The translations under genes and the position numbers were made by a program. A stretch of 61,972 nucleotides of DNA from Pseudomonadota bacterium (GTDB lineage Bacteria > Bdellovibrionota > FAC87 > UBA2466), in contig JAYUGC010000113.1 in assembly GCA_043767805.1 (NCBI GenBank), positions 1 to 61,972 of the forward strand, in the 5' to 3' direction. Positions within the stretch are counted from its first letter, which is position 1, and each line of letters opens with the position of its first letter. Of this stretch, positions 990 to 45,791 are shown one piece after another. Below the pieces are notes generated by a model. The model was not told the DNA's origin. It saw only the letters and a program-made list of their open reading frames with translations, and did not search any database.

Positions 990-1454
990 TCAAGGAAGGT
1001 TCGCTCTGAGCCCAATTTGCTTACAGGCCGCGAGAATCCGGTCCGCCTCGAAATATTCTGCCGCATACAAAGCCCGGAAATCCGATCCGCTTTGTGAAAC
1101 GAAGAGCTGATATTTCTCGCCGGCGTATTTTTTCAGCTCAATGAGACCGCAAGATGTTTGCTCGGTCCAAGCGGCATCCGTCGTAAGTCTTTGAGCCATG
1201 CGCACACCGTCCGTCCAATAGATGCGGTAAACGATTTGCCCCTGCGGATCGACGTAAAGCGGATGATAGAAAGACCACTCGTTCGCGCTGGCCCCCTGGA
1301 TTTTGTAGTAAACAAACCCATTCGCGGTTATCGGAAAGCCCTGGTTCTGACCGTCCTGCCAGTACTGATACTGCCCCTGCTGAACCGACTGCCAATCCGC
1401 GTGCGCGGAACCCGCACCTAAAAACACAACGAGAGCGACCCACAACTTCTGCAT
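990..1454 (-). CDS. Secreted hypothetical protein
   Basis: Signal peptide MQKLWVALVVFLGAGSAHA; AGGAG ribosome-binding site upstream; sigma54 motif upstream. Confidence 0.75.
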   Translation of the reverse strand: MQKLWVALVVFLGAGSAHADWQSVQQGQYQYWQDGQNQGFPITANGFVYYKIQGASANEWSFYHPLYVDPQGQIVYRIYWTDGVRMAQRLTTDAAWTEQTSCGLIELKKYAGEKYQLFVSQSGSDFRALYAAEYFEADRILAACKQIGLRANLP

Positions 1455-1509
1455 CTTGAGCTCCTTCAGCTACAACGCGAACGACTTGCCGCGATTTCAC
1501 GCGGTAGAT

Positions 1510-1525
1510 TGCAATCGCTTTGCCA
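1510..1525 (-). promoter_or_regulatory. sigma54 -24/-12 promoter
   Basis: TGGCAAAGCGATTGCA on the minus strand (GG-N10-GC), about 55 nt upstream of the 1454 start. Confidence 0.7.
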
Positions 1526-1691
1526 GATTTTTAGGCAGGGGCGCCGCGACTAGGCGGCAAACTTTTCCAAGAGAGCGGTGTCGTTTCGACTCCGCCCGGC
1601 AACACAACCTTCCTCGAGGATAGTTCGCACTGGATTTCGAACTTTCGTCCGTGCTACTGCCATGCCTTAAGGTTTTGTGGGAGGTCCTATC

Positions 1692-2351
1692 ATGACGAAA
1701 TTCAGTGTTCGCGCGGTAATCATTGCGGCTTTCTGTTTGGCCGGGGTGGCCCAGGCGGTAGTTCAAGACGGTTTCGATGCGGTTTATCGCAACTGTTTCG
1801 CCCAGCCGGTTAGCCGTTTTCAGACTATTTCCATCGTGGCTCCGGCCAAGTATCAAACCGCTTGGTTTGATTTCATCGGCGAAGCTGCCGACATCATTCC
1901 GATCGCCTCGAATGGAGTCGAGTACGTCATCGATGAAGGCAGGGCGTTCTTCGCGGCCGATTACCGTGGTTCCAACGCCCGCGGGCAAATGGAACTAATG
2001 GCGCGCTACATTCGCAGCCGCGCGGACCGCCTTCCCAACGACAAGAACAAAGAGTTCAGCAAGAGCTGCATGGTACTTTGCGCTTCCGCCAACTACCTCA
2101 CCTACAAGCACCGCGACGCCACGAAGTACGGCGGCATGAGCACGCTGATGAAGGAAAAAGAAGGCGAGTGCACGGAGTTCGCTCGCTTCGCCGACGATTT
2201 AGCCGGCCGAGTAGGGGTTTCGAGCCTCACCGTGAGCAATCTGAAAATGGGGCACGCCTACGTGGGCTTCTATATCCCCGCGACCAAGAAGTGGTACTAC
2301 GCCGAGCCGCAGTCCAGCGAGTGCCGGTTCATGGACACGACCCTCAAATAG
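1692..2351 (+). CDS. Secreted transglutaminase-like (Cys-protease fold) protein
   Basis: GGAGGT RBS then ATG at 1692; signal peptide; motifs GECTEFA, GHAY and WYYAEP match the transglutaminase-like C-H-D/E triad. Confidence 0.7.
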   Translation: MTKFSVRAVIIAAFCLAGVAQAVVQDGFDAVYRNCFAQPVSRFQTISIVAPAKYQTAWFDFIGEAADIIPIASNGVEYVIDEGRAFFAADYRGSNARGQMELMARYIRSRADRLPNDKNKEFSKSCMVLCASANYLTYKHRDATKYGGMSTLMKEKEGECTEFARFADDLAGRVGVSSLTVSNLKMGHAYVGFYIPATKKWYYAEPQSSECRFMDTTLK

Positions 2352-2430
2352 GCGCGATCTCTTAAGTTGCGAAGCGGGGCGCAACGCGTTATCAGGGCGA
2401 GTCTCTATTACTAACTTTAGGAGTTCACTC

Positions 2431-2718
2431 ATGTTGAAACTTTCCCTCGCGAGCTTAATGTTCTTTGGATTCAACCTTTTGGCGAATGAGCCGACGACCG
2501 CTCCCGCGGCCGCCACTGCCGCCACGGCGACCGCCCCGGCCAACGCCGCGGTCCCGGCCGTGCACACGGTCCACGAAGGTCACACCCACAAGCACGGCAA
2601 AAAATGCGGCCACAAAGCCGAAAAGCACGCCGATCACACGGACTATGAGCACGATGGTCACCACCACCACGCTCACGAAACCCACGTAGACGACTGCGTA
2701 GGCCCGGCCCACTCGTAA
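2431..2718 (+). CDS. Small secreted His-rich putative metal-binding protein
   Basis: AGGAG RBS; signal peptide, Ala/Thr linker, then HTHKHGKKCGH...HADHTDYEHDGHHHHAH. Confidence 0.75.
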   Translation: MLKLSLASLMFFGFNLLANEPTTAPAAATAATATAPANAAVPAVHTVHEGHTHKHGKKCGHKAEKHADHTDYEHDGHHHHAHETHVDDCVGPAHS

Positions 2719-2734
2719 TTCGTTTCAAAAGCTT

Positions 2735-2756
2735 CCCCGGCCCGCGAGGGCCGGGG
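2735..2756 (+). terminator. GC-rich hairpin, probable terminator or stabilising stem
   Basis: CCCCGGCCC-GCGA-GGGCCGGGG just after the stop; weak U-tract. Confidence 0.5.
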
Positions 2757-2771
2757 TAGGCTTCGTTTCGC

Positions 2772-3524
2772 ATGAGCTACGACAAGTGCTTCACGAAACA
2801 AGCCGCTGCCTACCGTAAGTTTCGCCCTACCTACCCGCAGAGCCTCTTCGATTTTCTAACCGCACAAAGTAAGCACCGCGATCTCGTCTGGGACGTTGGC
2901 ACCGGCAACGGGCAAGCCGCCCGCGCTCTCGTTAAAACCTTTTCGAAAGTCATCGCCACTGATGTGGCCGAAGCGCAGATCAAGGAGGCCGTGCCCGAAG
3001 CAAATATCACCTTCGTCGTCGCGCCCGCGGAGAAAGCGCCGCTCGACGACCGTTCCGCGGATTTAGTGACCGTCGCCCAAGCCATTCACTGGTTCGAGCT
3101 CGAGACTTTTTACCGAGAAGTCCGCCGGGTATTAAAACCTGGAGGGCTCGTCGCCGCTTGGTCCTACAATTTTTCTTCGCTCGAAGATAAAACGCTTCAC
3201 AAAATCATCGATGACTACGGCCGGATTTTTCTCGGGCCTTACTGGTCGAGCCGTCTAAAAGTCGTCCATGACGATTACCGCTCGCTTCCTTTCCCTTTCA
3301 CGCCGGTCGAGGCTCCGAGGCTCACGCTCTCCTTCGATTGGAGTTACGAGCAGCTCAAGGGTTACTTCGACAGCTGGTCCGTAACGCAAAGTTATAAAGA
3401 CGCGAATGGTGGCAAGGATCCGTTCGAGACCATCCGTGGGGACGTCAAAAAAGCCTGGGGCAACCTCGAACGGAAAGTGGCCGTCGTTTGGCCCATGACC
3501 CTCAAAGTCGGGCGCCTGGAATGA
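2772..3524 (+). CDS. Class I SAM-dependent methyltransferase
   Basis: Motifs VWDVGTGNGQ, DLVTVAQAIHWF and RVLKPGG. Confidence 0.9.
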   Translation: MSYDKCFTKQAAAYRKFRPTYPQSLFDFLTAQSKHRDLVWDVGTGNGQAARALVKTFSKVIATDVAEAQIKEAVPEANITFVVAPAEKAPLDDRSADLVTVAQAIHWFELETFYREVRRVLKPGGLVAAWSYNFSSLEDKTLHKIIDDYGRIFLGPYWSSRLKVVHDDYRSLPFPFTPVEAPRLTLSFDWSYEQLKGYFDSWSVTQSYKDANGGKDPFETIRGDVKKAWGNLERKVAVVWPMTLKVGRLE

Positions 3525-4387
3525 AAATACAGATCGCGATCTTTCTCATTATGCTGACACAAAATACAATAGCTTCCGTGACGCCCAGAGTGCCCGAGCG
3601 AAAGGATTTCTCGGTGATTCAGGCCCGTCTCGATAAGCTCGTGGGGTTCGAGCAAACGAAGCTCGGGCCCGTGACCTACGGCACCAAGCACTATCCGATC
3701 TATGCGCTCGTCTCCAAGGGGCCTCAGGGAAAGAGAAAGAACGTACTGCTCTCGGCGGGCGTGCATGGCGACGAGCCGGCGGGCGTGTTCTCGCTTTTGC
3801 AGTTTCTGGAGAGAGATGTCGCTCGCTACACGGATCGTTTTCGTTTTTTCGTATTGCCGTGTGTGAATCCGAGCGGCTTCGAAGCGGATTCTTTAGAGAA
3901 TCACGGCGGGAATAATATCAACCGCGCTTTCAAAAAAGAAACTCCCGCCCAGGAGGCGAAGCTCGTCATGGATCAGCTGGCGATGTGGAAGGAAACTTTC
4001 GCGTTCACGATCGACATGCACGAAATCCCCGCTTACTGGGCGGACGAAGGCTTTACGGAGAAAGATAATCCCAAGGCGGCCTACCTCTACGAGACTCAAC
4101 TCGAAAAAGGTAAACGCATCGGAAGAGACATGCTCAATGGGCTTCCCAAGGACGCCGAGATCAGTCATTGGCCGAAGATCTACGGCGACTCGGCCGTGCG
4201 GGGGCTGGTCAGCTATCCCGAGGGAAATGGAAACAAGATTTACGCCGAGCAAACCACGCTGGACGGTTTTCTCCATGGCCGGTTCTCCGCTCATACTTTT
4301 ACTAGCGAGACACCGACCGGCTGGCCGCTCGAAAAGCGGATCCGGGTGCAGCTCTCCTGGCTCGAAACGGCGCTCAAGCATTATTGA
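3521..4387 (+). CDS. M14-family metallocarboxypeptidase (succinylglutamate desuccinylase/MpaA-like), probably exported
   Basis: ATG at 3521 overlaps the upstream TGA (ATGA). Motifs AGVHGDE, NINR, DMHE and SETP; hydrophobic N-terminus. Confidence 0.85.
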   Translation: MKIQIAIFLIMLTQNTIASVTPRVPERKDFSVIQARLDKLVGFEQTKLGPVTYGTKHYPIYALVSKGPQGKRKNVLLSAGVHGDEPAGVFSLLQFLERDVARYTDRFRFFVLPCVNPSGFEADSLENHGGNNINRAFKKETPAQEAKLVMDQLAMWKETFAFTIDMHEIPAYWADEGFTEKDNPKAAYLYETQLEKGKRIGRDMLNGLPKDAEISHWPKIYGDSAVRGLVSYPEGNGNKIYAEQTTLDGFLHGRFSAHTFTSETPTGWPLEKRIRVQLSWLETALKHY

Positions 4388-5964
4388 GGGCGTTTCACCT
4401 GAGCGTAGTCCGCTCCGCAGAGTATTTCGCGAAGGGACGCGATGGAGCGGACTTGGGCGCTGGTAGCCGGATCTAAGCTCAAAAGGTGCGCCACTTTCCG
4501 CGTGACCGCCGCCTGCGCTTTTTCCGCCATTTTTTCGAGAATTTTTCGGCGGCGGACGGGGTCGGTTTCTTTCAGCTCTGCGGCGATGGCCTCGGCGGGC
4601 CGGTCCCAATCGAAATTTTTCTTGGCTTTGGGAGCTTCCGCCGGCGCCTTAGGCGTCATCTCCACTTGCCCCACCGCTCTTGGCTTCGCGAGCTCCTCGA
4701 CCGTGTGGGCGAGACTCGTTCCGTCGATGACGGATTGAAACACCAGGCCCGGTTGCTGCCTTCCTGGTTCTCCCAGCTTCTCCAAACGATCTAAAAACCG
4801 ATCGATTTTCACCGGGAGAGACGCGGTCTTTCGGTACTCTCGCAGAGCTTCACTCATCTCGGTCGCGAGCGAAGGGCTCATAAAGATGGGCCGCAAGCTC
4901 TCGGCAAGATCTCTGAAGTCGGCGTTTTTCATCGGCATGATGTGACCATCTATCCCCTGGAGCATCAGATGAAATAGGGAAGCGCCCTTCAATTTGGGAT
5001 TGGCGGCTTTGAGCTCTCGTTCCAATCCGTCGGCAAAATCTTTTTTCCATTCCAGCCGTTCGTAGAAGAAGGGTTTCTCGTACTCCACGGCGAGAGTAGC
5101 GGAGACGTCGCCGGTGACGAGGATGGGAATATCGGAGTGAGCCACCACAGTCTTGGAAACTTCAAAGGGCAGCGACTTGTAATACCGAATCTCCACGTTG
5201 TCGGGAACGTCGGCCGAAACGGGATGCTGAACGATTAAGAGAAATTTCTGATTGCGGTTCTTGGGATCGCGCGCCGCACTTACGGCGGCCTCCAGATAGG
5301 CGTCCGTGGCTTGTCGCTCATGAGAGTAGGCGAACCCAATCTTCACCCCTTCATAGTTGCCCTTGAGGTCACCAAAAACTTGTACCGGTAGCGAATCGAG
5401 CTTGTCGTGAAGGGCACTTCGGGTCATGGGGGGCGCTGGCTTTTTTTCGCTTACGTAGAGTCCAGCGTAGTACTTCCCCGCTCCGGCGTTGACGCCCAGA
5501 AACGTGGCGCCGCCTTTTTTGAAATTCGTTACCGATCCGGCCGCAAGTTGTTCTTCGAAGCCGCCGTACTCTTCGAACACCATGACCAAAGGGGCGCTCG
5601 CACTGAGCTTAACGCTTTTCGAATCGGTCGCGAAATGCAGGCCGATATCGGTCTTGGGAAGCTCGCTCTTACCTTCTAAGTGGTAAGTGATTCCATTTAC
5701 TGTTTTCACGCCGCCCAGGCCCACGAGCCCTGGCTCGAGAATGGCGACGGTACCGAGGGACTCCGCAGCGACCAAGACGTGCACTTCGGCGTGGGGCCGG
5801 CGCTCGAGAACTTTTTGAGCCATGAGGATGTTGGCGGCGACATCGCCGAAGCCTCCGCGAGAGGTGTCGCCCGTGTAGAGGCTGATTTTCTCCGCCCATA
5901 GGTCGCCGCCGGCCAACAAGGCCGCGAGTACCAGTACGCGAACGAACTGAGACTTAAATGGCAA
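4381..5964 (-). CDS. Secreted GT-B-fold protein, EarP(DUF2331)-like
   Basis: TTG start with a purine-rich RBS; signal peptide; GFGDVAANILMAQ and SDIPILVTGDVSATLAVEYEKPFFY resemble EarP-type motifs (compared from memory). Confidence 0.55.
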   Translation of the reverse strand: MPFKSQFVRVLVLAALLAGGDLWAEKISLYTGDTSRGGFGDVAANILMAQKVLERRPHAEVHVLVAAESLGTVAILEPGLVGLGGVKTVNGITYHLEGKSELPKTDIGLHFATDSKSVKLSASAPLVMVFEEYGGFEEQLAAGSVTNFKKGGATFLGVNAGAGKYYAGLYVSEKKPAPPMTRSALHDKLDSLPVQVFGDLKGNYEGVKIGFAYSHERQATDAYLEAAVSAARDPKNRNQKFLLIVQHPVSADVPDNVEIRYYKSLPFEVSKTVVAHSDIPILVTGDVSATLAVEYEKPFFYERLEWKKDFADGLERELKAANPKLKGASLFHLMLQGIDGHIMPMKNADFRDLAESLRPIFMSPSLATEMSEALREYRKTASLPVKIDRFLDRLEKLGEPGRQQPGLVFQSVIDGTSLAHTVEELAKPRAVGQVEMTPKAPAEAPKAKKNFDWDRPAEAIAAELKETDPVRRRKILEKMAEKAQAAVTRKVAHLLSLDPATSAQVRSIASLREILCGADYAQVKRPQ

Positions 5965-5988
5965 AGCTCTTCCCCCTCTCCTTGTCTT

Positions 5989-6004
5989 AGCAAGGGGTGA
6001 GCCA
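5989..6004 (-). promoter_or_regulatory. sigma54 -24/-12 promoter
   Basis: TGGCTCACCCCTTGCT on the minus strand, about 25 nt upstream of 5964. Confidence 0.65.
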
Positions 6005-6532: not shown

Positions 6533-6575
6533 CCAATATCGAGTTTTGAGGCTAGCGAGTCGGGGTTTTTACAGA

Positions 6576-6591
6576 TGGCACCTTGGTTGCA
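6576..6591 (+). promoter_or_regulatory. sigma54 -24/-12 promoter of the giant gene
   Basis: TGGCACCTTGGTTGCA, near-consensus. Confidence 0.75.
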
Positions 6592-6736
6592 CAAGTTAGA
6601 AAACGACTTCCCATCCACCGCCGAGCGTTCGCTGGCCCGGTCCTTCGGAGTTTTTTTGAAACGTACACACGCCAAATTCGTTACGTTCCTGTTCCCTGCC
6701 TTTGCGCGCAGAGTGAAGGCATCGGGGGATTATTCC

Positions 6737-7582
6737 ATGACACGTGTTTTGTGCGCGGTAGCGCTCGCGTTCTGTTTTACGGCGCTGAGCTATGCCGCGG
6801 ACCCGCCCGCGGCTGACGAGAAACACGATCAGGACGGCCGGGCCACTAATGAATTAAAAAAATCCATCGAGACGCGCGCGGCTTATCTCCGTGAAGCGCT
6901 AAACAGCGCGGACAGTAAAATTCGTCTCGCCGCGTTCGCCGAAATCCGTGGCTACATCGCTTCCGATTCCAGAGAGAAATTCTCGACGATAGAGGCCAAC
7001 AAGAAGTTGGTGGACCTTTATCTCGGCGCGGAACATTTTGAGTCTCACGGCACTTGGTACGCGGACGCTAAAGCGGACAAGAAAGATATCGAAGCGAAGT
7101 CGGCCGCTTTCTTAAAGGTCGTCAGCGACCATTTCGCCGCCAAGGAAAAAGCCGAACGCGAAAAGTTGGCTAAGGTCGAAGAGGACAAAGCGCGTAACGA
7201 TCGCGAACTTCCCTGCGGCGAAGCCATTGGCAAGCACCCGGAATTTGCCGCCCTGTTTGGCAGCCAAGGCCGCGACAGAGCTCCCGCTTATGTGGCGGCT
7301 TTGCTGTCGACTCCCGAAGGAGAGCAAAAGTTTTTTAGCGGCTTGAAAACCATGACCGCTGAGACCATGCGTAAGTGTGATCTCCCTGAGATGACCGCGA
7401 GCGCTACGCTCCGGACTCTTTTGAAAGAGCTTCCCAAATTCCTTCCCGCCAATGCTTCCGAAGCCGCGAAAAAAGAAGCCGCGGCGCTGGTAGGGTGGGG
7501 GACGTACGTACTTCCCATCAAGCAGCCCGCTCTTAGAAAAGCGCTAGCCAACCGGCTCGAGCTGATGGCGCGCCTCGTTTGA
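6737..7582 (+). CDS. Signal-peptide-bearing helical protein; probable N-terminal part of the giant gene
   Basis: GGGGGA RBS then ATG at 6737; MTRVLCAVALAFCFTALSYA signal peptide; ends at TGA 7580-7582, in frame with the next ORF. Confidence 0.75.
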   Translation: MTRVLCAVALAFCFTALSYAADPPAADEKHDQDGRATNELKKSIETRAAYLREALNSADSKIRLAAFAEIRGYIASDSREKFSTIEANKKLVDLYLGAEHFESHGTWYADAKADKKDIEAKSAAFLKVVSDHFAAKEKAEREKLAKVEEDKARNDRELPCGEAIGKHPEFAALFGSQGRDRAPAYVAALLSTPEGEQKFFSGLKTMTAETMRKCDLPEMTASATLRTLLKELPKFLPANASEAAKKEAAALVGWGTYVLPIKQPALRKALANRLELMARLV

Positions 7583-7606: not shown

Positions 7607-10600
7607 TTGTCCGACGAGTTCAAAAAAGCGATGACCGATCTCCGAGACAGTCCAACCCGCGGCGCGGACCTGGACGGCCATCTCTTTCTTCAGCTTCTGC
7701 AAACGCCTGATTCCACCACCAATACCGGCCATTCGTTGTTGGGCCTGGAAGGGTTGGAAGATTCCGCAAAGCAAGACTTCTATACGGTCGTCGGAGCCAT
7801 CCGCGCCCAGGATCCTTTCGCGGGCGCTCTCGTCGAGCCCGGAGGCAAGACTCTGTCGTCGCCTGAAGAGCTATTTGCGAGAATGGCTTATAGGGAAGAC
7901 CCGGCGGTCCTTAAAACGCTCGAGTTCAAGGGTGGGCCGGGCTACGCTGACTCTCCCGAGTACCTGCGGGAGACCCTGAGCCGCGCGTTTGCGGACTTGG
8001 AAAAACCCGAGACGCACCATCTCGGGCTCGATCGAAGCCGAGCACTGCCGTCTCAGATGGGACTGCTCTCCGAAGAAGAGCGAAAAGTTCAGCGAGAAAT
8101 TTTATCCGCGGCCCAGCTGGCCGTCGAACGCATGGACGGACATCAGCTCTCCGCGGACGATGCCGTGCTGCTAGAGGAAGAGCGCGCTCTCAAATCAAAA
8201 CTTTCCAAGAACTGTCCTTCCAACGCGGACTACGAGCTGAAGCGTTTGATCGAGATAGCGAAAGCCAAAGACAAAAAATCCATACCCATCCGGACTCGCC
8301 TGGCGCTTCTAAAGCTACCCGCGGGCCACATGGAAATACTTCGCTTCCTGATTGATAAAGCCGCTACCCCGGCTGAAAAGGACCGCCTTTCCGCTTTGAT
8401 TTATGCTCCGTCGGCGAACGCGATTCGGACAGAGCTCGGCAAGTTACCTTCCGAGCTCTTGGTCCTGGATTACAATCAGCCGCGCTTTAAAAGGGAATAC
8501 GATCAGAGAAACGGCGTCTCGTCGGTTCCGCTACCCTCTATCTTTGGAAAAAAGAACGAAGCGGGGGCCGCCAATCCCAACTTCCGTCCGGAAGCTGCTC
8601 GCTACTACGCGCTCAACGCTTTTAAATATGAAGCGCACGGTTCCCCCGAGGGAAGTAGTGACCCGCAGGCGTTTTTCAGCTGCTTTAAGCCGCCCTACGT
8701 CGATGCTTTGGCGATTTACGTCGGAGACATCGATGGCTGGGGACTTACCACTCCGCAAATTCTGGCGGAAATGGAGAAGGTCCGCTCGGGTAAGCTTGCC
8801 GAAGCCAATCCGAAGGTACAGGGTTTCTTGCAGGAGCTTTACGCGAATCGCGGAGCGAATCGCCTCGACTCGGACATCATTCGCCTGGGCCAGTGGCGCC
8901 GGGCCAAAGATCACCGCGCGCCGACCTCCGAAGAGCGAATGGCGTTTCTCGGAGATACCTTGCTCCCGGCAAGTCACGAGCAGGCCCCAAGCTTGAGATC
9001 GGAACGCGAAGGCGTAGTTAAGTTCGTTGCCACTCCCACGACTCAAACTCCCTCGGCGCTTCGTTGCGAGGATGAGGACCAGGCTTTGAAGAGTGTGCTC
9101 GCCGAGCAGTTCCCCGCGGTTGCCGAGGCGTTGGTGAGCTCCGATCCGGCGAAACTCGTTCACGCTTGGATCGCCGTCAATCGCGGCAATCTGAGCTTCG
9201 ACCCGGCCAAGATCCCGCTACCGGAGAAAACCGATCCGCGGTGGAAAAAACTTTCCGAAACCGTGGTGCCGTCCAAAGACAAAGCCGCTTTCTGGGATCG
9301 CATCAAGCAGGATCCCATTGCGGGTCTGGGAAAAGAGGCCGCGCCGGCGATACGCCGACAGATTCTCAGCCGTCTGATGCCCCAGCTCGTCTTGAGTGCG
9401 CCGAAAGCCGCGGAAAATCCGCTTCCCGGCCTGACCCCCGAGACCAAGGCCGCCAGAGAGCAGGCCGTTTCTCGCCGCATCGAGGACATCCAGAATTTGG
9501 TGAACTACGCCCAGCGAAATCTCGTCGGTATCGATGCCTTGTTCGCGCTCCAAAGCGCGAGCCCCGAAACCGGAGCGGACGCGCCCGAAGAGTTCCGCAA
9601 GGGCTTCTTGGCCTTTAACCGAGCCATGGAGAGTAATATCAGAGCGGTCCCCGGTCAGTTCGTCGACGGAATCTCGGGAGAGCTCGACCGGCTATTGAGC
9701 GGGCTTATGGAGGAAGAGCGCCTCAAGGTGCCCATGGACGCCTTTCTCCTCCACGACCGGATTTCTCTCAGAGAATATCACCGAGTGGGAGCCGAGAAGG
9801 ATGGCACGCGGCAGCCCGTCACGCCAGACGGTTCCCCTGATCTCTCCAACTTGGCAAAGGAAGAAGCTTTTCTGAAAGGCGTTCAAGCGCGCCATCAGTA
9901 CTTCGCCCAGCAAGGCTTGAAGCAAAAGCGCTTGGAGGCGCTCGGCTCGCAAAACGAATTTCTGACTCAGTTTTCCCGGCACCTCGGGCGGCTGGGTCCC
10001 GAGGTTCTTCCCGCCGCTCAGCTCAAGGCGGTTCTCGACCAGCTAGGAAGAATAAACGCCGCACTTACCGTCGGTCAGAAGGCCGCCCTTCTCCAAACGC
10101 TTGGCAATTTCGCTCTGTATTGCCAGAGCAAGCCCGACAATTGCAGTCTGCCGCTCCGCGAATCCGTGGGGCTCATGAACGCCATGTCTTTGAGGGATTT
10201 CGAAACGCTCAATCCCCTGGTGTATCAGCAGCACCTCAAGACTCCGAACGAAAGCAAAGACCCGTTTCTCGGCGACAACCGCCGTTTGTTTTCCAAGTGC
10301 TTGTTGAGGGACGAGCCGCCTCGCGAGGTGGCGAAGACTGAGGAGCCGAAGCCGGAAGTGGCGCCCCTCGTTCCTTTCAAGTTAGATAACTCCCGGCCGG
10401 ATGGCCCGAGTGCGCAGGGCCCCACGGCGGCGAACAAAGATCCCATCTGGGGACTACCCGAAACGTTTATTACCGAGGACGGAAAGCCCAAGTCCGCGGA
10501 AATGCGGGACGGGAGTAGCCCGTTCTTCGCGGAAAAAGCCGAGATGACGGCCGAAGCGCGTCAGAAGGTTTGGCTAAAAAACGAAGCGCGCGTGGCGGAA

Positions 10601-13600
10601 GCTCTCGATGATCTGGCAAATCCTGCCCTGACGGCTGAGGATCTGCAAAAACGTTTTGGGGCTTATTATCAGTCTAGGTTTGGGCAGCCTATGCCCACCG
10701 GTCCCTTAAGCCCGGTCACGGCGCAGAAGCTACGTTTTGCTTTGGTCAGCGATCTGTTCGAGCAGGCGGCCGCGGCCTCGGGAACCGCGCAGCGTAGCCG
10801 GCTACTCGCGGCGTTGAGCTCCTTGCCTGGTTCCGACGGAACCGTGGGAGGCTTGCGAAAGGCCTTGGACGGACTCTTCGACACCTCCACAAAAAATGAG
10901 TTTCAGCTCGCCGCTAAATTCCAGGCGGTTAACGACTGGTTGATCCAAGAAGCGAGTCACGGCGTCGGCAATAGCGACTCGAGAATGAGCCGCCTGCTTG
11001 GTTTGGTCTCGAGCACGCTCGACGATTACTGGGATCCAACGCAGAACAAGGCGCATGCGGACTCGGCGAGCACCCTTCGGATGGAGGGAGAGTACGAGCG
11101 GCATTATCCCGAGCTGGCCGAGCTGAGAACGCGGCTCCAGACCGCCGCCGTCAACGAAGGCAAATTCCTCTACGGTTCCGCCCGGCACTGGGCTTATTCG
11201 TCCCCTGAAACGATCCAGGCGGTGAGCGATCTCGGCAACACTTTATTGAGATACGAGCCGAAGGCGCTCGTCTCCGCGTTAACTGACGCCGGCGGCGATG
11301 CGAAACGCGCCAGCAAAGTGGACGAGCTCCATAAGCTCTGGGGGCGTTTCGCCCTGGAGCCCAACGCGGATCCCATGGCCGCGGATTTCAAGCCGGGCAA
11401 TCTGAACACGAATCGCGTTCGCGCGCTGGCGATGGAAACGCTTCTGCGTAAGTACAAGTTCAACGTGGGCGAGCTCGAGCAGATGCTAGGCACCTACTTA
11501 AAGGGAGCCCGGCTCGTTTCTCCCTACGAAATGGCTTTGGGCCTCGATCCGAACCTCGGCATCTACAATACCAAGAGTCACGCGGACGTTTTGAAACAGC
11601 CCGTGAAGGATGAAGATAAGGAAGGCATGATCGCCGAGCTTCTCATGGACGCTCGTGGCATCGGCGCCTACTTGCGCCGGAACAATCCAGTTCCCATGCC
11701 CGGACAAACTCCCAATCCCAAGCGGGACGAGCTGACTAAGAAATTTGCCGAAAGCTGGCCTACCACCGCGGAAATGAAAGCCACCATCGGGAGCCTGAAG
11801 TATTGGGCGGGTCCCGAGCAGGGCGGAGAGCGCACGCGCCAAGAGATTCAAGCCAAGTTTGGTTTCCTCACCGACCATCAGTCCGATCAGTTGAACCGCG
11901 CCTTGTCCGTATTGAGAAAGCTGCCCAAGCGCGATCTCCCCAGTGACGCGGAGATCATGCGAGTTATCGCCACGGAAGTGTTTCGGACCTATTCCAACGG
12001 CGAAGTGGGCGCGGAAAAGACGATTCCCGCGGTACTGAAACCGGACGCGGACGCGCTTCTGGAGACCGTGCGGAGCCTACACGAGTTGGTTAAATCGGAT
12101 CGCCCCGTCTTGGAAGCCGACTTGGCTGGCGCGACTAAGGGTCTTAAAGAATTGCTCGGCCAGGCCTCACTCGTCCAAGATCCCGAGAGTGGCCTGAAGA
12201 ACTGGATTTTAGGCAGCATGAACCGGAACATGGGCATCTCCGGACTGCTCACCGACCTCTTCGAGTACCGGCACCCCTGGGTGAAGCTCGATTCCATCGA
12301 GAACGTTTTGACGACCTTGGATCCGCGGCTCCGCGATACCGATCCCTTGGTTCGGGAACAGCTGAGAAATTTAGCGCGTATCTTGAAGGCGTCGCGCTGG
12401 CTCGAGGACAAGGAAAATCCGACCGATGCCGAGATTGAAAAAGCGGTTAGTGAAGCTTCCTTCGGCGTGACGCCGGATCAGAAGACTCCCGAGGAAATGG
12501 CAGCCGAAATCAAGCGTCTCTCTAGCTGGGTCAAGCTCTCGCTCCATATCGCGAAAAAAGCGCCTACCGATCGAAAATTAGATCAGGACCTCGCTTCCTT
12601 CATTCCCGCCGAGAGAACTCCGGAAGCGATCCGCTCCGACGCGCATCTCATCAGCGAATTTTTCAAAATCTCCCGCACTTTCTCGCCCAGAGACTCTGAC
12701 CGCGCCCAGCTCGCGAAGCTGCGGGATCAGGGACTCGATCACCATCTCATCGATACCTGGGTCAAAGCGTTGCAAGTCGACATGGATCATCTCGCCGGAG
12801 TGGCGCCGCACAAGGCGCTGGATGCGATTCGTTCGTCGAGTGCCGCGCGGGACGAAATTCTCGGGGCTATTTCCCTCATCACCCGTCATCTCAAAGACGA
12901 TCCGGTTCCCTTCAGCATGACGCCAAAGAAGGACGCGCCCTTTTCCATTCTCGCGGACCGCTTCGGTAGAACTCACAGAATCGAAGGGCTCTATCCGTGG
13001 ATCAAAGATCAGCTCAATGAGACGGACGAAGGAAAGTACACCGCGGCTCTCATGGGCGTTCTTCCCATCGGAGTCAAAGACGTAACCGACGACGCGCCGG
13101 AAAAAGCGCCTCTAGTGGGCGATAAGAACGAGCTTTTCGCCCAGGCTCTGTCGGTTCTGCGCTGCCGTTTACTGGAAGAGGTCCTTCGTCTTCAGTACGG
13201 TTATTCCGCGCGCGGCGGTAGCAGCCAATCTGCGCTCCTTCATTTCGATAACGACGTCCGCAAAAACGATCAAAAGCTCGGCGTGCTTTACGCAAAGGTC
13301 ATCCGGGACGTCGAAGTAAAGCTCCTGGAGCAATATTCGGACGCGGAAGTCGACATGAAGGCATTCCGCGACAAGTTGAAGAGCACCGATCCGGTCGCCT
13401 ATCTGAACACTTTGCGGGAACGCACTTTGCCCAGCGAAGCCGAAATGCGCGACGGCCGCGTGGTCGCGGTGCCCGGATGTGTGTATCAAGACACGTATCG
13501 CTCTACCGCGTCGGGTGGCCCGGATAAAAAAGGGCCCGGCTGGATCTTGGCGGGTCCGAACCGTGCGTTCTCAGAGTGGGCTCGCGAAGAGTTGCGGCGA

Positions 13601-16600
13601 GGCGGGCGCGACGGTGTCTCCGAGATTTTGCGCGACGACAATCGCTTCCTCTCGGCGTTATCCGGCGAGCTCTCACAGAGCTTTGGCCCGTACGCGGGCT
13701 TTTATCGCCCTCAAAATACCTGGACGGCCGAAAAGACTTATCCCGCCTTGCATGAGTGGGGATACTCGGTGGCTTTACAGCGCGGCAAATACCCGACCGA
13801 CGGGTTCGCACCCCGGGATCCTCCACCCGCCGTGCTGGCCGCCTTGGCCGAGCTTCCGAAGGAAAAGAAAGAAGCTCTCACTAGCCAATTGGAAGCCGCG
13901 AAGAAGGAAGCCCTCCGTAAGGATAAGGCCGCGGAGAATCTAGTCGGCACAGGGCCGACGTTCGGCGTGCGGACGGTCCATCCGGATCACGACGTCGAAG
14001 AAGCGGGGAAAGCCCTGCGCGCGGCGCACGAGACCCGCAAGGCTATTTACGACTCGATTTTGGAAACGCATGCGCAATCTTTCCGCACGCCCGCTTCACC
14101 CATTCCCGCCGGGGCGGAAGCTCAGTTGATGAAGCTTTCGCTTCCCATGCGAGAGTTGCTCTCCGTCGTTCTTTTCCATGAGCGCGATCGCGCGGCCGTT
14201 ATCGAAGCTAAGCTTCGCGAGCTGGATCGCGACCCGAAAGCCAACGAAAAAGAGATCACCAAGCTTCGCTCCGAAGTGAAAGCCATTCATCTTTTGGCCA
14301 ACCGGCTCATTCTGGTCCCCGACGTCTCCACCTTAGCGAGCGTCGCCTGGAAGGACCCCAAGCTCAGAATGTGGTTACTCGACAAGGCCACGCCGCGACT
14401 CAGTCCGCCCGAAGAAGGAAAGGCGTTCACCGATCTGACGGACAAGCTCCGGCGCTGGGACAAGTTGCTTCTGAAGCCGGGTGAAGAGGCATTGAGTCTT
14501 GAGGAACGCGAAGCTGTACGAGACCAGTTTGAAAGGGTCTTGCATTTCGCCGCGGCTCCGTCGAGTGGTCCTTTCGAGGAGACTCGTGGCTCGAACGACC
14601 GCGGCAAGAAAGCCGCTTCCCATTTCGTTTCCTTACTCCTGCGCATGACCGAAGAGGCCGGGAGTCTCGAGTTTGCTCGCAAAAACTCCGGCTTCGCCAA
14701 AGATTACGAAGCTGTCATGGGCGGAGACGCGCGCTTTACCCCGCAGGCTACCTTAGGCGAGCTGCAGTCCGAGCGGCGCTTGGCTCACGACGGTTGCGCG
14801 GGAGACAAGGCAACCTCACTGACTTGCGTGAAACTGAACGAGCGCCTCAAAAAAATGGATGGTCTGGGACGTGGATTGTCTACCCAGGCCCGCCTGAGGT
14901 ATTTGACCCCTGGCGAAGATCAGCTCCAAGAGGGCGACTTCCATGCGTTAGAGCGGCTCGAAAACGATTTGCTGCCTCAGACGCATACGCAAAACGATAA
15001 AGCGGAGGGAATCCGGCTCACCCAGGAAAACCTGATGGCGTTCCCGAGTAAAGGCGTCATCGATCAGGCGTCGCGCAACTACGACTTGGGACGTTTCCTC
15101 TATCGCACTCAGAATGAGTCCGTGCCTCGCGTTTCGGAAGAAGTCATCGAGCGCTTGGTGAAAGTGGCGCAAAACGGCAAGGCACAAGTTTTCGGATGGA
15201 AGATCACCGACAAGGGTCCGACTCTCGTGGTGGAAGAGAAAGCTTGCGAGACGATTAAGCCGCTCCCCGAGAACCCCGGCGAAGTCGATACCGAAGTCAT
15301 CGCAGACGTCGTCATGTCCAAGGAAGACAGCGAAGTCATTCTCGGAGGAGCCACGAGGCTCGCGAACTACCAGGCGTTCCAGACGGCTTACGAGGGCCTG
15401 AAGCTATCTTCGCCGACCGGGCAGGAGCCCGATTACGCCGAGGTGATGGAAAAAGCCAAGCCCATCTTCGACGAGAAGCGCGACAAGCTCTTGACTGATC
15501 TGGTCACCATGGCGGCGCGCCGGTATTTGCAGATAGCGATCCGAGAAGCCGGCAATCCGGCCGACTTGCGTCTCTCCGCGCCCAACTCGAAAGCAGGTTG
15601 CGCCCTGCGCGCGTTGCTCGGTAAAGCGCACATCTACGACATTCAGAAAGTGCAACAAGACGTCTTCCGCTCGGAGAAGATTGCGGAAACTCGCGCAGCC
15701 GGGAAGGGCGACGGGACGGTTTCGCCGAAGGAAATGGGAGAAAAGCTCGAGAGGTTCATGAGCTCACCTGAGTTTCTCGTCGAGATCGAGCGCAAGTTCG
15801 AACATGAGGTGGCTTTCCACGACGGTACCCAGGAACAGACGCGGCCGGTGTTCAACGCAGCCGTGACCGAGACGACTCTCAAGGACGGTCTGGGCGCTTG
15901 TTACGACAGCTGGAAAAAAGGCGGCAAGACGGTTCCGGCAATTACCCGGCAAGACGATCCTCGCGTGCTCAAGCTAGCCACCGCCATCGAGGCGGAAACT
16001 CTAGCCATTCGTTCGCTGCACCAGATGAATCAGGTGGAGGCCGATTTGCGCGCCCGCGCGGCGGAGACCACCATCAGCGACACCGCGGCGGACCTCTCTT
16101 TCTTTTCCGACCCCAAAACGGGTTTGGTGACGTCGATTGAGAAACAGCTGGCCAGGTTTAAGAACCCGAAGCTCAATCCGGAGCTCAATACCCACGAGAT
16201 GAAAAAGACCGTGGAGCGGCTGGAAGAGCAGCTCGCGTCGCACAAATCAAATGCATCAAGACTGACGTTTGACCTCTACCGGAACCGTTTGCGGGTGGAA
16301 GCGGCGCTGAACGCTCCTTTGGACGGACCCAAGACCCAAGAAGAGATTCTCTCGGATATCGATTCCATCTCTCGCATCAAGAGCCTTTACGAAGAGGAAA
16401 GCAATCGGCTTCATCTGGCGCTTCCCGAAGACCGGCGTCCTCCGTTCGCGGCTTTTCCGCCGAATGATTTCTTCGGCAATGTCTATGACGACCCCCAATT
16501 GCGCGGCTACGTCGAGCGCTTCGTCCGCGCCAAGCTCGCGGCGGTAGCGGAGAAGCGCAAGCTGCACCAAGTTCCCGAAGGGTACGATCCCCGCCTCGAC

Positions 16601-19600
16601 GAAGCGGCTTTGATCGACATCAAGCTCCAGTCCCTCATCCGCAAAGCCGGCGCGCTCAAGCGCTCCGAGCGGATGCAGAAGATGGAAGAAGAGCTCGGTA
16701 AAATGGCGACCGCTCAAGACCAGAGCGTCATCTTGAAAGTTCAGGATGATTTCGACCAGATGGCCGTGCACTGCATGGAGCTGCTCGCGGACAAGGGCCG
16801 CTGGCCGGTCTTCACCGATGACGACGGCAAACATTTCGACTTGGCGGATATCGCCGCCGTCCGCAACCACATCATGGCCTTCGAGGCGCAACGGGCGGGC
16901 TTTAAGGCTCTCGTCAGCTCCCTTTTGCCGCCTCCCGGAGTCAAGCTGGCTAAAGACATGGACGGGACCCGGGCTTTCGAGCACTTCGTGGCTAGCCACC
17001 CGACGTATAAGGAAGCTTTAATAGCCATGCAGGGCAACGACTCGCTTTTCCCGCTGAACGAGGCGGCTTTGCACTCCTTGGAGAAAGACACCTTCCAAAG
17101 AGCGTTCGACGAGCGCAATCAGGAAGAGATCAAATTGAAGGAAAGCCTCGAGGGTCTAGCCGAGCTCGGGTTTCAGTGGAACGGCACCAGCCTCCAGTGG
17201 GGCCAGGGCAAGGACGGTCTCAAGCTTCATCTCATCGGGCCCAAAGGCAAGATCAAGAGCCTCGCCGAATTGAAGGCGCGTCTCGAGGGTTTGCGCGCCC
17301 ATGGCGCTTACAAGCTCAATGGAAATAATCCCTGGTCGCTTCTGATGGAAGACATCTGGCTGAAATACTCGAACACTGGCTTCAAGCCGCTTATCGAGTT
17401 CGGTAACTCCGCCATTTGCATGATGAGCTTCTTGCACGAGACCGACGAAGCCCGAGCGGATGGGATTTACTCTCAGAGCACCGGTAGGGAGCAAAATCTA
17501 CCCGATCACGAGCTTTGCTTCGATCCGACACTGACGAAAGTTTCCGACAAGCATCGTGTCAAATCGGCGCGTCTCGGCGGTGGCATCGAAGACCAAAAAG
17601 GAATCTCGTCGACCTTCCTGAGCGACATGGGTCACGCGGAGAAGTACCTTGCTTTCATGAGCCTCGAAGATGCCCGCGCTAGAGCCACCAAGATTGCGGC
17701 GGAAGTGAAAGCCGGCATGAGCGGCGAGGCCAACAAGTACGATCTTCTGCGCAAAGAGCTCATGGGGCAGTCCAGCAACATGTTCGCGGCCTTTCAGGAT
17801 CTCGATCAGATTTCTTGGGAGCGCAACCCTCAGGGCAATATCTGGATGCGAAACCTGGGCTGGACCAGCGTAAAAGGCGCGGCCAATGCCTTGGATAAAT
17901 CGTGGGGCGCACTCGGAAAGCTCAGAGACACGCTGGCGAGCGACATCTCTCGCTTGGAAGCCCTCGGCGGCATCACCATCGACTGGCAGGCGAGCGATCA
18001 CACCGTTCAGCAGCCCGCCTCCAGCATCGCCCAGATGTTGCGGCAGCAGCAAAAATACGTCACTGACCCGGATTTCTTCAAGAACGTGCCTCGCGAGGTC
18101 ATGGAAAACATCGACGCTCTCCAGGAGTTCTATACCGAGATGCTCATCACCGAAATCGCCACCGCGGGTCTCGGTGGCGTGTTCCAGGCGGCCAGATTCG
18201 GCCTTAGGGGCGCGATGGTCGCCGATGCGGCGAAGTATGCGGTGCTGGCGGAGCGTCTGGAAAAAGGAATGGCGCTCACCGAGCACGTCGTGAAAGGCGT
18301 GCGCAGCGCTTACCGTTTCGGAATAGGCGGTAAGGTCGTCGGCGATTTGATTTCCAAATTGAACGAAAAAGAGCGCGGCTACATGATGACTCAGTCGGGC
18401 GTGCAACTGCGCGACGGCGCGAGAAAGAGCCGCTGGGTTTTCGGTCTGCTTCCGCTGACTGGGCCCGTGGTGCAGTCGATGGCGCAGTTGAGCGGCGTTC
18501 CGGCGCACTTGATTCCCTGGGTGGCGGGCCCGCTCTCCATGGGCGGAACGCACTACGGTGTCGAAATCGCCAACGGCCACGATCCCCTGCATTCTTTGAT
18601 TGGTACCGTGCCGATGGCGATGTTCGGCCTTCCGGTATCGCGGCTGGCCGGGGGTCTCTACGCCAACGGCATGAAGCAGCCCATTTTGGGATCGGTGCTT
18701 AGGCCCACCTGGGTGCAGAAGCCGCTCATGGGAATCGCCAGTTACGGTTACTTCGCCAGTGTTACCGCGACCGGCGGTGCGCTTAGCCATTACCTCTCTC
18801 CGGGGATCAACCGGGATGAGGAGACAGGTGAGCTCGTCTACACGAGTCCTTTCACGGGCAAAGAAGTGAAGGACGCGACGATCTTAAAAATCATGGGCGA
18901 CGCGGTTTTCGGCAATATCGGCATGGATATGTTCTTCGCTCGCAATCACATCGCGGAAGTCCAGTCGAACGCGGCGGCAAGTCTCTTCCGCTCCGGCACG
19001 TCTTATCGCCAAGTGATCGATACCTTTAGCGGAGGCAAGCCCCAAAAGGCGCAGCAAGCCCATCAGATGCTGATTCAGGGGCTTGCGCACACCTCCGTCT
19101 CCGAGATCCGCAATATGCGCCAGAAAGCCATCGAGCGGCGCCGTGAGGTCGAAAAGAATCCGCTCAACGTAGAGGCGGCGCGGGAACTGGAGGGTCTGGA
19201 ACAGTCCCTTTCGCTTTTTGCAAAGACCGCGGGCCACGGCGAGAAGGAATTTGGCACCGTGGATGAAGCGGCGATTAACTCGTTCATGACTTCTCTCGAG
19301 GCTCACACTAAGGGCGGCCTGGGCAACCGGCCGCTCATGGAAGTCGTCGATAAAATGTCTTTCGAATTGGCGGTGGCCAAAGTTTCCGATCTGAAAAAGA
19401 AAGACGCCAGCTTGGATGAATGGCTCGCGCTGGTCAAAGATCCCATTTATCAAGGATCGGGCGCCTCCAGCATGGCGCGGATCATGATCTTGCCTCCCGA
19501 AATCATCCAGAAAGCGCTGGCCTCTCCCAAGCACAAGGAAGCTTTCTTCCCGGTACTCGAGCAGCTCGCGGGCATCGTCTCCATTCGGCCGGACAGAATG

Positions 19601-25108: not shown

Positions 25109-25389
25109 GAGAATCTCCCTTTTTGGCGTGAAGTAGTCTTATTCTATCCGTTCCGACCACGAGCCGTCCAATTCCTATACAGCGGCAGAAGCCCCATGAT
25201 TGCGAGCCCCTAGGCCGAGGGGTCCGGACCTCGTCTGAAATTGATCCCCCCGTCAGTCCACCGACAGTCGTCAGGTCTATCCCCATCAATGATTAACCAT
25301 TAACAATAAATACTTAACTTACCTTAGGGGGGCGCGAGATCGCGAGCGGATTGGCCGACGATATGCACCTTAAGGTCCCGGGGGGGTTC

Positions 25390-37452: not shown

Positions 37453-37534
37453 TGCGGCTAATTATCTACACCGAAGGGGGTGGCGACAAGCCTTGCGAGC
37501 GCTGGCGCGGCTTTCGCTCTGACACCGCCCGTCG

Positions 37535-37975: not shown

Positions 37976-38107
37976 CGAGAGTTCCTTGGAAAGAAAGTGG
38001 CTCTAAGTACCATAAGGCGCGGTTCCGGATCAAAAATAGGCCCCCTTTAGGCTCAAAAGTTGTCATCGGAGGGCGGTCGCCTTACGCTTTTGGGGTAACC
38101 AAACCCC

Positions 38108-45647: not shown

Positions 45648-45791
45648 GACAACTCTCTGAAAGAACCCTTCGAACGGGAGTGAAGTATTTCTTACCACAC
45701 TAACGCAAGAGACTCTCGGAACAAGAACCTCTATGCTAGAGCCTCTATAAAGACTCTGGCGGTTTAGGAATCCCTGTTGCGCATCGCGAAA

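Follow-up and report, generated by a model that had tools for sequence, protein, structure and literature searches.

An EarP-related GT-B protein family with a predicted export signal in Bdellovibrionota

EarP is an inverting glycosyltransferase of GT-B fold that rhamnosylates Arg32 of EF-P. It corresponds to CAZy family GT104, Pfam PF10093 and NCBIfam TIGR03837, with members in Pseudomonas, Neisseria and Shewanella and structures in PDB entries 5xvr, 5wxk, 6j7j, 6j7m and 7cox. Nucleotide sugars, on which Leloir-type GT-B enzymes depend, are generally understood to be both produced and consumed in the cytoplasm. In the papers searched, EarP/GT104 appears solely as the rhamnosyltransferase of EF-P in the cytoplasm, and neither further members nor further functions are described. 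In the account of P. putida EarP, whose numbering is used below, the invariant catalytic acids are D13, D17 and E273, and the TDP-rhamnose pocket comprises the F191, F252 and F258 cage, Q255, Y193, R271 with S275, R278 and Y291 (PMC5615199). R271 is reported there to bind the diphosphate and to be required for function, and the substitution E273D to impair the enzyme strongly (PMC5615199).

Secreted or injected effectors that glycosylate proteins include the arginine-GlcNAc transferases NleB/SseK, Legionella Lgt and SetA and the large clostridial toxins (PMC7199390, PMC6191443). NleB/SseK and EarP both glycosylate arginine. The resemblance of these effectors to the EarP-like protein described here is one of concept only, namely an exported enzyme drawing on the nucleotide sugars of a target cell. 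NleB/SseK, Lgt and the clostridial toxins are GT-A proteins with a DXD motif, delivered by type III or type IV secretion or by translocation domains of their own, whereas the EarP-like protein has a GT-B fold, no DXD and only a predicted Sec signal.

The EarP-like gene and its product

The window analysed covers positions 1 to 61,972 of contig JAYUGC010000113.1 of a Bdellovibrionota genome (assembly GCA_043767805.1). The EarP-like gene and its start are as follows:

4381..5964, minus strand: coding sequence of the EarP-like protein, 527 aa, TTG start at 5964, stop at 4381-4383
5972..5983, minus strand: Shine-Dalgarno-like AAGGAGAGGGGG, read directly, ending 8 nt ahead of the TTG start

The reading frame is intact over its 527 codons and codes for a full-length protein when compared to homologues of 531-556 aa. 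The ribosome-binding site is strong, and the stop-to-stop frame spans only 541 codons, which leaves no alternative start upstream of TTG 5964. All six peptides quoted by the initial annotation in support of an EarP-like glycosyltransferase are present in the translation in the order given there (GFGDVAANILMAQKV, EVHVLV, VKTVNGI, DIGLHFA, VFEEY and LPFEVSKTVVAHSDIPILVTGDVSATLAVEYEKPFFY). The product can be divided into these parts:

5893..5964, minus strand: predicted Sec signal peptide, residues 1-24, with K4 and R9, core VLVLAALLAGG and L-W-A, followed by E25
5365..5892, minus strand: N-terminal Rossmann-like GT-B half, residues 25-200, holding GGFGD (37-41) and the FEEY motif (E132)
5842..5856, minus strand: GGFGD loop, residues 37-41, counterpart of EarP D13-N-Y-G-D17
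4765..5364, minus strand: C-terminal Rossmann-like half, residues 201-400, the donor-binding half in EarP, holding F211, Y213, F267 and VTGDVS
5101..5118, minus strand: VTGDVS, residues 283-288, counterpart of EarP V-R271-G-E273-D274-S275
4384..4764, minus strand: helical C-terminal extension, residues 401-527, absent from EarP

The extension of ~125 aa distinguishes the protein from EarP. It consists of a disordered linker (~427-456) and helices (457-523) with a Cys kept in close homologues. Modelled by itself and with no alignment, the extension did not yield a usable structure (pLDDT 59, pTM 0.32).

Homology to EarP and the putative active site

The EarP-like protein matches no Pfam family up to E 10, PF10093 included, and TIGR03837 was not matched in NCBIfam. 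A hit to AnkY/LegA9 in the latter (E 0.017) is at chance level and absent from other family members. Searches of the PDB by sequence and by profile gave no match either. The family was collected in an alignment of 74 sequences, none of which matches PF10093 at E 0.01 and a single one of which matches TIGR03837 (E 0.0039). Profile-profile comparison of this alignment with 24 EarPs, all matching PF10093, aligned 347 columns (hhalign probability 97.0, E 9.8e-11). The sequence identity of the protein to EarP is ~15%.

EarP is also the closest known fold to the predicted structure by Foldseek search, and an EarP cluster is listed by the protein atlas with a score of 0.90. The best 50 rows obtained with VIA-align are GT-B-fold enzymes, nearly all glycosyltransferases with a few UDP-GlcNAc 2-epimerases, and the order of secondary structures in the model fits the two Rossmann-like domains of GT-B. 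MurG (GT28), GT1 enzymes (GtfA, CalG, UGTs), GT4 enzymes (BshA, PimA) and MGD1 clearly lie further away than EarP (Z gap ~8); they work in the cytoplasm or at the cytoplasmic membrane face on lipid, glycan or small-molecule acceptors. The fold search against known structures and the profile-profile homology agree on the EarP-like GT-B identity first proposed, the AlphaFold model and the hhalign comparison sharing one family alignment and not being fully independent. The hhalign comparison recovers, column by column, the motif pairing with EarP given by the initial annotation: GGFGDVAAN..LMA is paired with DNYGDIGVCWRLA, VHVLV with VRLWVD, VFEEY with INLEY, and LPF...VTGDVS...EKPFFY with LPF..Q...VRGEDS...GKPFvW. 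The protein is almost certainly a genuine EarP-homologous GT-B protein, and its family is a remote, previously undescribed sister family of EarP/GT104.

The closeness of fold and profile to EarP would also fit an orthodox EarP that rhamnosylates the EF-P of its host. The single efp gene of the genome is found on another contig, in agreement with the lack of an adjacent efp noted at the outset, and its product has the loop HVKPGKGNSF. This loop is of lysine type, and since lysine stands at its tip EF-P cannot be what the EarP-like protein modifies; the genome lacks an EF-P of the Arg type, and the EarP-like gene in it is accessory and not linked to efp. The failed match to PF10093, the predicted signal peptide and the loss of D13, R271, D274 and R278 also speak against an orthodox EarP. 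PF10093 was found in none of 401 genomes of the phylum, a result of little weight since the positive controls had no match either. The lysine-type EF-P together with the failed family match rules out this function, whose residual probability is vanishingly small.

Where EarP has its active site, the new family is highly conserved, in part with other residues. D41, equivalent to EarP D17, and G40 are found in 72/72 sequences, and the position of D13 is occupied by G37 (Gly in 63/72). In VTGDVS, G285 is invariant (74/74), S288 (EarP S275) is kept in 72/74, T284 takes the position of R271 (Thr in 70/74) and D286 that of E273 (Asp in 68/74). Two of the three catalytic acid positions of EarP (D13, D17, E273) are therefore acidic and that of D13 is lost. 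E132 and Y213 (73/74 each), K307 (72/74) and Y301 (69/74) are conserved as well. The aromatics in contact with the nucleobase are kept as F211 (EarP F191), Y213 (Y193) and F267 (F252). The remainder of the donor pocket is replaced in the hhalign register (R271 by T284, R278 by L291, Q255 by S270, F258 by V273 and Y291 by L304), and the R23-D274 interdomain salt bridge of EarP gives way to a hydrophobic pair, L47 and V287. The family-specific, invariant K297, K307, Y301 and Y223 may take on the roles of R271 and R278.

In the same register D13, R271 and Y291 are changed to Gly, Thr and Leu, respectively, and mutation of these residues in EarP is reported to have impaired or abolished function (PMC5615199). 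Such replacements could point to an exported binding protein or a pseudo-enzyme on the EarP scaffold, the more so as pseudo-glycosyltransferases of GT-B fold exist and one of them, VldE, is among the Foldseek matches. This non-catalytic reading is nevertheless improbable, as the near-invariant polar residues D41, E132, T284, D286, S288, K297, K307, Y213 and Y301 cluster at EarP active-site positions, as one would expect if the catalytic or ligand site were functional and not if the scaffold were relaxed. Judged by these residues, a catalytically active transferase is rather to be expected; its mechanism is probably inverting and its acceptor probably a protein.

Predicted export signal and distribution of the family

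The amino terminus, MPFKSQFVRVLVLAALLAGGDLWA/EK, has K4 and R9, a hydrophobic core and L-W-A, after which the first beta-strand begins. These n-, h- and c-region features, recognised by inspection, are kept in the family alignment, where homologues feature A-x-A-type sites in the column of L-W-A (ALA/Q, ALA/K, VRA/E, VSA/E). Inspection of the sequence identified neither a lipobox Cys nor a twin-arginine motif. From these features and their conservation across the family we infer that the signal peptide is cleaved. A hydrophobic 10-mer upstream of the N-terminal motif is present in 89/107 family representatives and in 0/24 EarPs. The secretion signal first claimed corresponds to this predicted Sec-type N-terminus. 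The same hydrophobic-leader flag is carried by 27/30 family genes from genomes of the phylum. With EarP as the root (split support 1.0), a tree of the 74 sequences places each of the six clearly signal-less members alone within a signal-bearing clade, and the export signal is apparently an ancestral, conserved trait of the family.

Two in-frame TTG codons within the hydrophobic core might allow translation to start internally, at codon 16 or 17, and yield a protein that is not exported; the same outcome is conceivable if the hydrophobic stretch anchors the catalytic domain at the cytoplasmic face, as for MurG. Both variants are quite improbable. The strong Shine-Dalgarno lies ahead of TTG 5964, the internal TTGs having none, most representatives keep the leader and show A-x-A-type sites at one common alignment column, and the charges before (K4, R9) and after the core (D21, E25) give an N-in/C-out orientation by the positive-inside rule. 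It is very likely on this basis that the EarP-like protein is exported.

The exhaustive search of a library of 1.84 billion proteins identified 128 family clusters at 50% identity; a word-indexed homologue search yielded only 2 relatives. Look-up of the clusters of 10 representatives returned "hypothetical protein" or no name. The family is patchy, with members in 27/401 genomes of the phylum. Searches of genome contigs with the single protein or with a 4-sequence alignment gave no relatives, and no family members were found in viral contigs. The EarP scaffold has thus a second, sizeable branch that is predicted to be exported, is untied to EF-P and differs from EarP in its rebuilt donor site. 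The C-terminal extensions are variable, with HEAT repeats in 3/39 long forms.

Among 99 neighbours in 28 loci there is no recurrent neighbour domain, and neither secretion-system nor nucleotide-sugar genes recur beside family members. Of the apparent recurrences, Arginase reflects one locus shared by two genomes of a single genus, and the HEAT-repeat proteins belong to a single locus. At 4 loci the gene is paired, in a conserved arrangement, with one for a secreted helical protein of ~950 aa; used as query, this partner found no match in the present genome. One genome shows a 4-nt overlap, with translational coupling, between the family gene and a gene for a J-domain protein that has a hydrophobic leader. 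An SLT lytic transglycosylase gene is a neighbour at locus L015, and flagellin genes and an RmlD-like gene are neighbours at locus L013.

Possible role and relation to the giant gene

The reading preferred here, with a probability of roughly 0.55, is that the gene codes for an exported, probably active glycosyltransferase related to the EarP family and directed at a target other than EF-P. Its donor and acceptor would differ from those of EarP, given that the genome has no target of EF-P type and that T284 and L291 stand in place of R271 and R278, the Arg residues for diphosphate binding and the leaving group. With D13 also replaced, a different donor is possible, or the protein may not be a Leloir enzyme at all. 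The Asp at the E273 position speaks against activity as well, in view of the strong impairment reported for E273D in EarP. If exported, it must act outside the cytoplasm of the producer. The conserved clade with a predicted export signal raises the question of the donor source. The answer could lie in an effector of a new kind, in a route of glycosylation outside the cytoplasm that has so far gone unrecognised, or in donor chemistry new to the GT-B fold.

A Sec signal alone delivers only to the periplasm, where the protein might modify the producer's own proteins or glycans at the envelope. It would then rely on a non-nucleotide donor such as a polyprenyl-phosphate sugar or a sugar-1-phosphate, or be a transglycosylase or phosphorylase. 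The replaced diphosphate-binding Arg pair of EarP fits a changed donor, the neighbours are often envelope or secreted proteins (the SLT lytic transglycosylase, the flagellins with the RmlD-like gene), and the ~950-aa helical partner could be the enzyme's own substrate. A periplasmic role of this kind is nonetheless unlikely, though worth keeping in mind. The protein keeps the nucleobase-stacking F211, Y213 and F267, a core envelope function is at odds with the patchy accessory distribution and the absence from a genome of the same genus, and we know of no GT-B enzyme that uses lipid-phosphate sugar donors in the periplasm.

For an exported glycosyltransferase related to EarP, the most likely setting would be a compartment with the nucleotide sugars of another cell in reach, for instance a prey or target cell, which fits Bdellovibrionota as a predatory phylum. 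The patchy accessory distribution, the absence of the gene from the corresponding site of the congener, the variable C-terminal extensions and the overlap with the J-domain protein gene are effector-like traits that hint at such a role. An effector acting on or in another cell, as the initial annotation proposed, is a tentative reading. A fuller and more speculative version, rather doubtful, sees the family as EarP-derived glycosyltransferases turned outward: they would be exported via Sec and onward into the prey or target cell and would glycosylate a victim protein, possibly on arginine, with the victim's nucleotide sugars, the helical or HEAT-like C-terminal extensions selecting the target. 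If true, this would be the first glycosylating effector of EarP type and GT-B fold and the first use of such chemistry in bacterial predation.

A functional tie to the divergent giant gene had also been suggested, to be sought as synteny in relatives. In the genome of the same genus an M14-like gene is directly followed by the pair of small ORF and giant gene; the EarP-like gene is absent there and was not found elsewhere in that genome. The linkage is not kept in the congener, where the giant operon occupies the corresponding site but the EarP-like gene is missing, and the suggested tie is not supported. In the genome with the closest genomic homologue the N-terminus of the giant gene is unmatched.

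Sigma-54 promoters had been assigned to both transcription units. The EarP-like gene has one candidate:

5989..6004, minus strand: candidate sigma-54 -24/-12 element TGGCTCACCCCTTGCT, 1 mismatch, which would leave a leader of only ~14 nt

This site is plausible, though not above background, and no sigma-70-like site was identified on the same strand. The assignment holds for the giant operon, which has a perfect -24/-12 element conserved in the congener, and rpoN is present in the genome.

The EarP-like gene, its fold and its family

The EarP-like gene (4381-5964, minus strand) is an uninterrupted reading frame of 527 codons with a GC content of 0.57, like its surroundings. Its TTG start has AAGGAGAGGGGG ahead at proper spacing, and a longer alternative ORF is excluded because the stop-to-stop frame spans only 541 codons. 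All peptides quoted in the initial annotation, which described an EarP-like glycosyltransferase carrying a secretion signal, are found in the translation in the order stated there.

Pfam gave no match to the protein, even at E 10, and PDB sequences gave none by single sequence or by profile. The sole NCBIfam match, to the Legionella AnkY/LegA9 model (E 0.017), is at chance level and is not repeated by other family members. A word-indexed search yielded two relatives, and an exhaustive one, run over 1.84 billion representatives, yielded 128 proteins at E <=1e-3, 71 at E <=1e-10 and 14 at E <=1e-30, the protein's own entry included. Exact-sequence look-up of 10 family representatives returned unnamed entries or 'hypothetical protein'. 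Of the 401 genomes sampled in the phylum 27 carry the family, which spreads over 23 of 204 genera; some have two or three copies, and this genome has one. Positions G38, G40, D41, N45, E132, G163, G168, Y170, Y213, Y223, T284, G285, D286, S288, A292, Y301 and K307 are near-invariant in the alignment of 74 members. The gene is real and conserved.

The AlphaFold2 model obtained with this alignment is confident (mean pLDDT 88.5, pTM 0.81). A Foldseek comparison to the PDB bears out the proposed EarP-like GT-B structure: the ten first ranks are all EarP entries, headed by 5wxk_A (E 4.8e-12) and followed by 6j7k, 6j7m, 6j7j, 6j7l, 7cox, 5xvr, 7f2a, 5wxj and 5wxi, with E values up to 2.1e-9; the first listed entry that is not an EarP stands at E 2.1e-7. 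An EarP reference set came from metagenome contigs, where a degenerate DNA pattern encoding D-N-Y-G-D-I-G-V located the genes; 24 full-length ORFs were taken from the matches and aligned, and all of them match PF10093 (best E 2.5e-159). Profile comparison of the two alignments by hhalign gave a probability of 97.0% (E 9.8e-11) over 347 aligned columns with 15% identity, spanning positions 31-392 of the family and 9-385 of EarP, and paired the same columns as the motif correspondence initially proposed. In a FastTree phylogeny of 74 family cores and the 24 EarPs, the latter are monophyletic, their split from the new family having support 1.0, and the protein pairs with its close homologue P0003, also with support 1.0. 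It is a remote EarP homologue with the same fold, a relationship beyond mere fold likeness. The texts returned by a full-text literature search dealt only with EarP/EF-P or with arginine glycosylation in general and held nothing on an exported relative, so that the family is classed as a new exported sister family of GT104.

In BFVD, a library of viral structures, the best matches of the model are two giant-virus ORFans, A0A6N1NNT1 of Tupanvirus (E 2.2e-10) and A0A3G5A546 of Homavirus (E 3.9e-8, TM 0.63 on target length). The feature clusters nearest to it in a protein atlas are also rich in Nucleocytoviricota. The scaffold may extend further still: giant viruses may also have EarP-like GT-B proteins.

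Putative active site and acceptor

Residues were placed in register by the hhalign alignment and conservation was counted over 72 or 74 family members. Roles of EarP residues follow Krafczyk et al. 2017 (PMC5615199), who assign F191 and Y193 to the nucleobase cage and to the diphosphate and pocket lid, and R271 to the diphosphate and leaving group. Positions kept are G16-D17 (family G40-D41, 72/72 each), the E-Y of N-L-E-Y (E132, 73/74, and Y133), the G-G motif (G168, 73/74), F191 (F211; 53 Phe and 15 Tyr in 74), Y193 (Y213, 73/74), F252 (F267, 43/74, the others mostly Leu), G272 (G285, 74/74), S275 (S288, 72/74) and, with a conservative change, E273 (D286, 68/74). In contrast, D13 is replaced by G37 (Gly in 63/72), R271 by T284 (70/74), R278 by L291, Q255 by S270, F258 by V273 and Y291 by L304. 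Both partners of the R23-D274 salt bridge between the EarP domains are replaced by hydrophobic residues (L47 and V287), a coordinated change.

The putative catalytic centre is preserved, but the EarP donor-phosphate contacts are exchanged. Phosphate contacts may be supplied by family-specific near-invariant residues nearby in the sequence: K297 (Lys in 59 and Arg in 8 of 74), Y301 (69/74), K307 (72/74) and Y223 (72/74). Such a pattern points to a functional site of altered specificity and not to decay. The protein would be an active transferase, probably inverting since it retains the D17/E273-type pair.

A protein is the probable acceptor, given the analogy to EarP and the HEAT-type appendages of some relatives. 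HEAT repeats usually mediate protein binding. They are found at the carboxyl terminus of 3 of the 39 long family members, these three being about 800-1250 aa in length, and also in separate proteins next to a family member:

L154, 47-3802 and 3873-6266: HEAT-bearing family members, in tandem on one contig
L160, 1382-3772: HEAT-bearing family member
L155, 1271-2533 and 4090-4839: HEAT-repeat proteins flanking a shorter family member

EF-P was also considered as acceptor and rejected. The single efp gene of the genome lies on another contig, in keeping with the initial remark that none is adjacent, and its product has a lysine-type loop (HVKPGKGNSF), whereas EarP modifies the arginine type. PF10093 was not found in this or any of the 401 sampled genomes of the phylum, which is weak evidence because control genomes were also silent.

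Predicted export signal and proposed site of action

The N-terminus of the protein (MPFKSQFVRVLVLAALLAGGDLWA/EK) has two basic residues, a hydrophobic core of 11 residues and an L-W-A site that immediately precedes the first beta-strand of the folded domain in the AlphaFold2 model; inspection found neither a lipobox cysteine nor a twin-arginine motif. The N-terminal G-D motif was located by pattern in 107 of the 128 representatives, and 89 of these have a hydrophobic 10-mer (mean Kyte-Doolittle >=1.8) upstream of it. Among the other 18 are borderline leaders and about a dozen clearly signal-less proteins. None of the 24 EarPs, whose motif lies at about residue 18, has such a leader. A similar test flagged 27 of 30 family genes from genomes of the phylum, one of the other three being a fragment of a split gene. 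In a 15-sequence alignment the classical sites A-L-A/Q, A-L-A/K, V-R-A/E, V-S-A/E and V-D-A/Q of other members share the column of L-W-A/E in this protein.

The family thus carries predicted export signals. On the tree of 74 members 60 are flagged as having a signal peptide, 4 a weak one and 6 none, with 4 unassigned, each of the six signal-less members standing alone within signal-bearing clades. The simplest reading is that the leader is ancestral, with later sporadic loss or mis-called gene starts. In the protein studied here it would be cleaved rather than serve as an anchor; the charge distribution places the catalytic domain outside the cytoplasm in either case. The enzyme would therefore work outside the cytoplasm of its producer.

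If the organism were a predator, prey nucleotide sugars would be an obvious source of the sugar donor for an exported transferase, which makes attractive the proposal that the protein is an effector acting in a target cell; its probability is put at roughly 0.2-0.3. The main rival, a self-directed periplasmic enzyme, would use a different donor, which fits the exchanged phosphate contacts; it is judged about as likely as the effector reading. A hint of action inside another cell comes from the J-domain coupling in a single locus, L014:

10095-11690 (-): J-domain gene, 531 aa, hydrophobic leader then DnaJ domain
8608-10098 (-): EarP-like gene, its start overlapped over 4 nt by the J-domain gene upstream

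Both products of this operon have a leader. J domains and Leloir transferases both normally need cytoplasmic partners, Hsp70 in the case of the former.

The Pfam scan of 99 neighbours (two per side) in 28 family loci showed no recurrent partner domain, sugar-nucleotide gene or secretion-system gene. One sub-clade has a conserved operon in four loci:

L019, 5986-10815
L021, 429-10571
L022, 5173-10721
L149, 4088-8387

There the EarP-like gene directly follows, often with overlap, a gene whose secreted product of about 950-1240 aa is mostly helical and has no Pfam match. The next gene in L019 and L022 encodes a secreted protein of about 127 aa that contains Cys; in L021 its homologues are on the other strand, a few kb upstream. 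This operon could join the enzyme to a partner or substrate. It was not found in the genome of the window with the query used.

Genomic context and promoters

The following elements surround the EarP-like gene:

3488-4387: M14/AstE-type carboxypeptidase-like gene, convergent with the EarP-like gene, 7-nt overlap
5989-6004: candidate sigma-54 element TGGCTCACCCCTTGCT of the EarP-like gene, one mismatch, 40 nt upstream of its start
6576-6591 (+): perfect sigma-54 -24/-12 element TGGCACCTTGGTTGCA, overlapping the first ATG of ORF 6575-7582
7607-21979 (+): giant gene, 4790 codons

As initially described, the EarP-like gene is divergent from ORF 6575-7582 and the giant gene. A functional tie between them, also proposed, is not supported. 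Pfam finds no domain in the giant gene product at E 1e-3, and an obvious N-terminal signal is lacking; a homologue of its N-terminal 600 aa was found in only one other genome among the 34 of the taxonomic family, that of the congener G171 (34-36% identity). There homologues of the small ORF (29% identical, E 3e-22) and of the giant gene (34% identical) come immediately after the M14-like gene, itself 56% identical; this genome, 93% complete, has no EarP-like gene between the M14-like gene and the small ORF or elsewhere. Conversely, the EarP-like gene has its closest genomic homologue in genome G155 (E 2.5e-77), where the giant gene N-terminus found no match. The two genes are thus inherited independently, and the EarP-like protein is linked neither to EF-P nor to the giant gene.

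Sigma-54 promoters had been proposed for both directions, and rpoN is present in the genome. The proposal holds for the small ORF and giant gene operon, which is probably sigma-54 dependent since a perfect element (TGGCACTCGCGTTGCA) is kept at the equivalent place in G171 (L148, 12779). The signal-peptide-like stretch of ORF 6575-7582 begins at Met55 (nt 6737), downstream of the element that overlaps its first ATG, so that 6737 is probably the true start. The site of the EarP-like gene is not above background: the window has 24 sigma-54 matches against 21 expected, and such sites precede 1 of 29 other family genes versus 23 of 321 other ORFs of the same loci. The leader from this site would be short, about 14 nt, and the same strand showed no sigma-70-like site. 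The closest genomic homologue has a two-mismatch sigma-54 site at -35.

The stretch 990-3524, bounded by an MFS gene with its tRNA (882-965) and by the M14-like gene, differs in gene content from its counterpart in the congener (L148, 9512-11653). These differences, together with the presence or absence of the EarP-like gene, mark a variable region.

Further genes of the window are:

35260-39310 and 44466-46163: polysaccharide-type cluster with a 730-aa GT4-GT2 fusion, UDP-galactopyranose mutase (Glf), a further GT2 and a methyltransferase
25351-25971 (+): FHA-domain protein
28293-29111 (+): secreted caspase-like (C14) peptidase
47302-48945 (+): YkuD-type L,D-transpeptidase with peptidoglycan-binding domain

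From the cluster it is clear that nucleotide sugars, a furanose donor included, are made in the cytoplasm of this cell. The last three genes are ordinary, yet typical of envelope-remodelling gene content.
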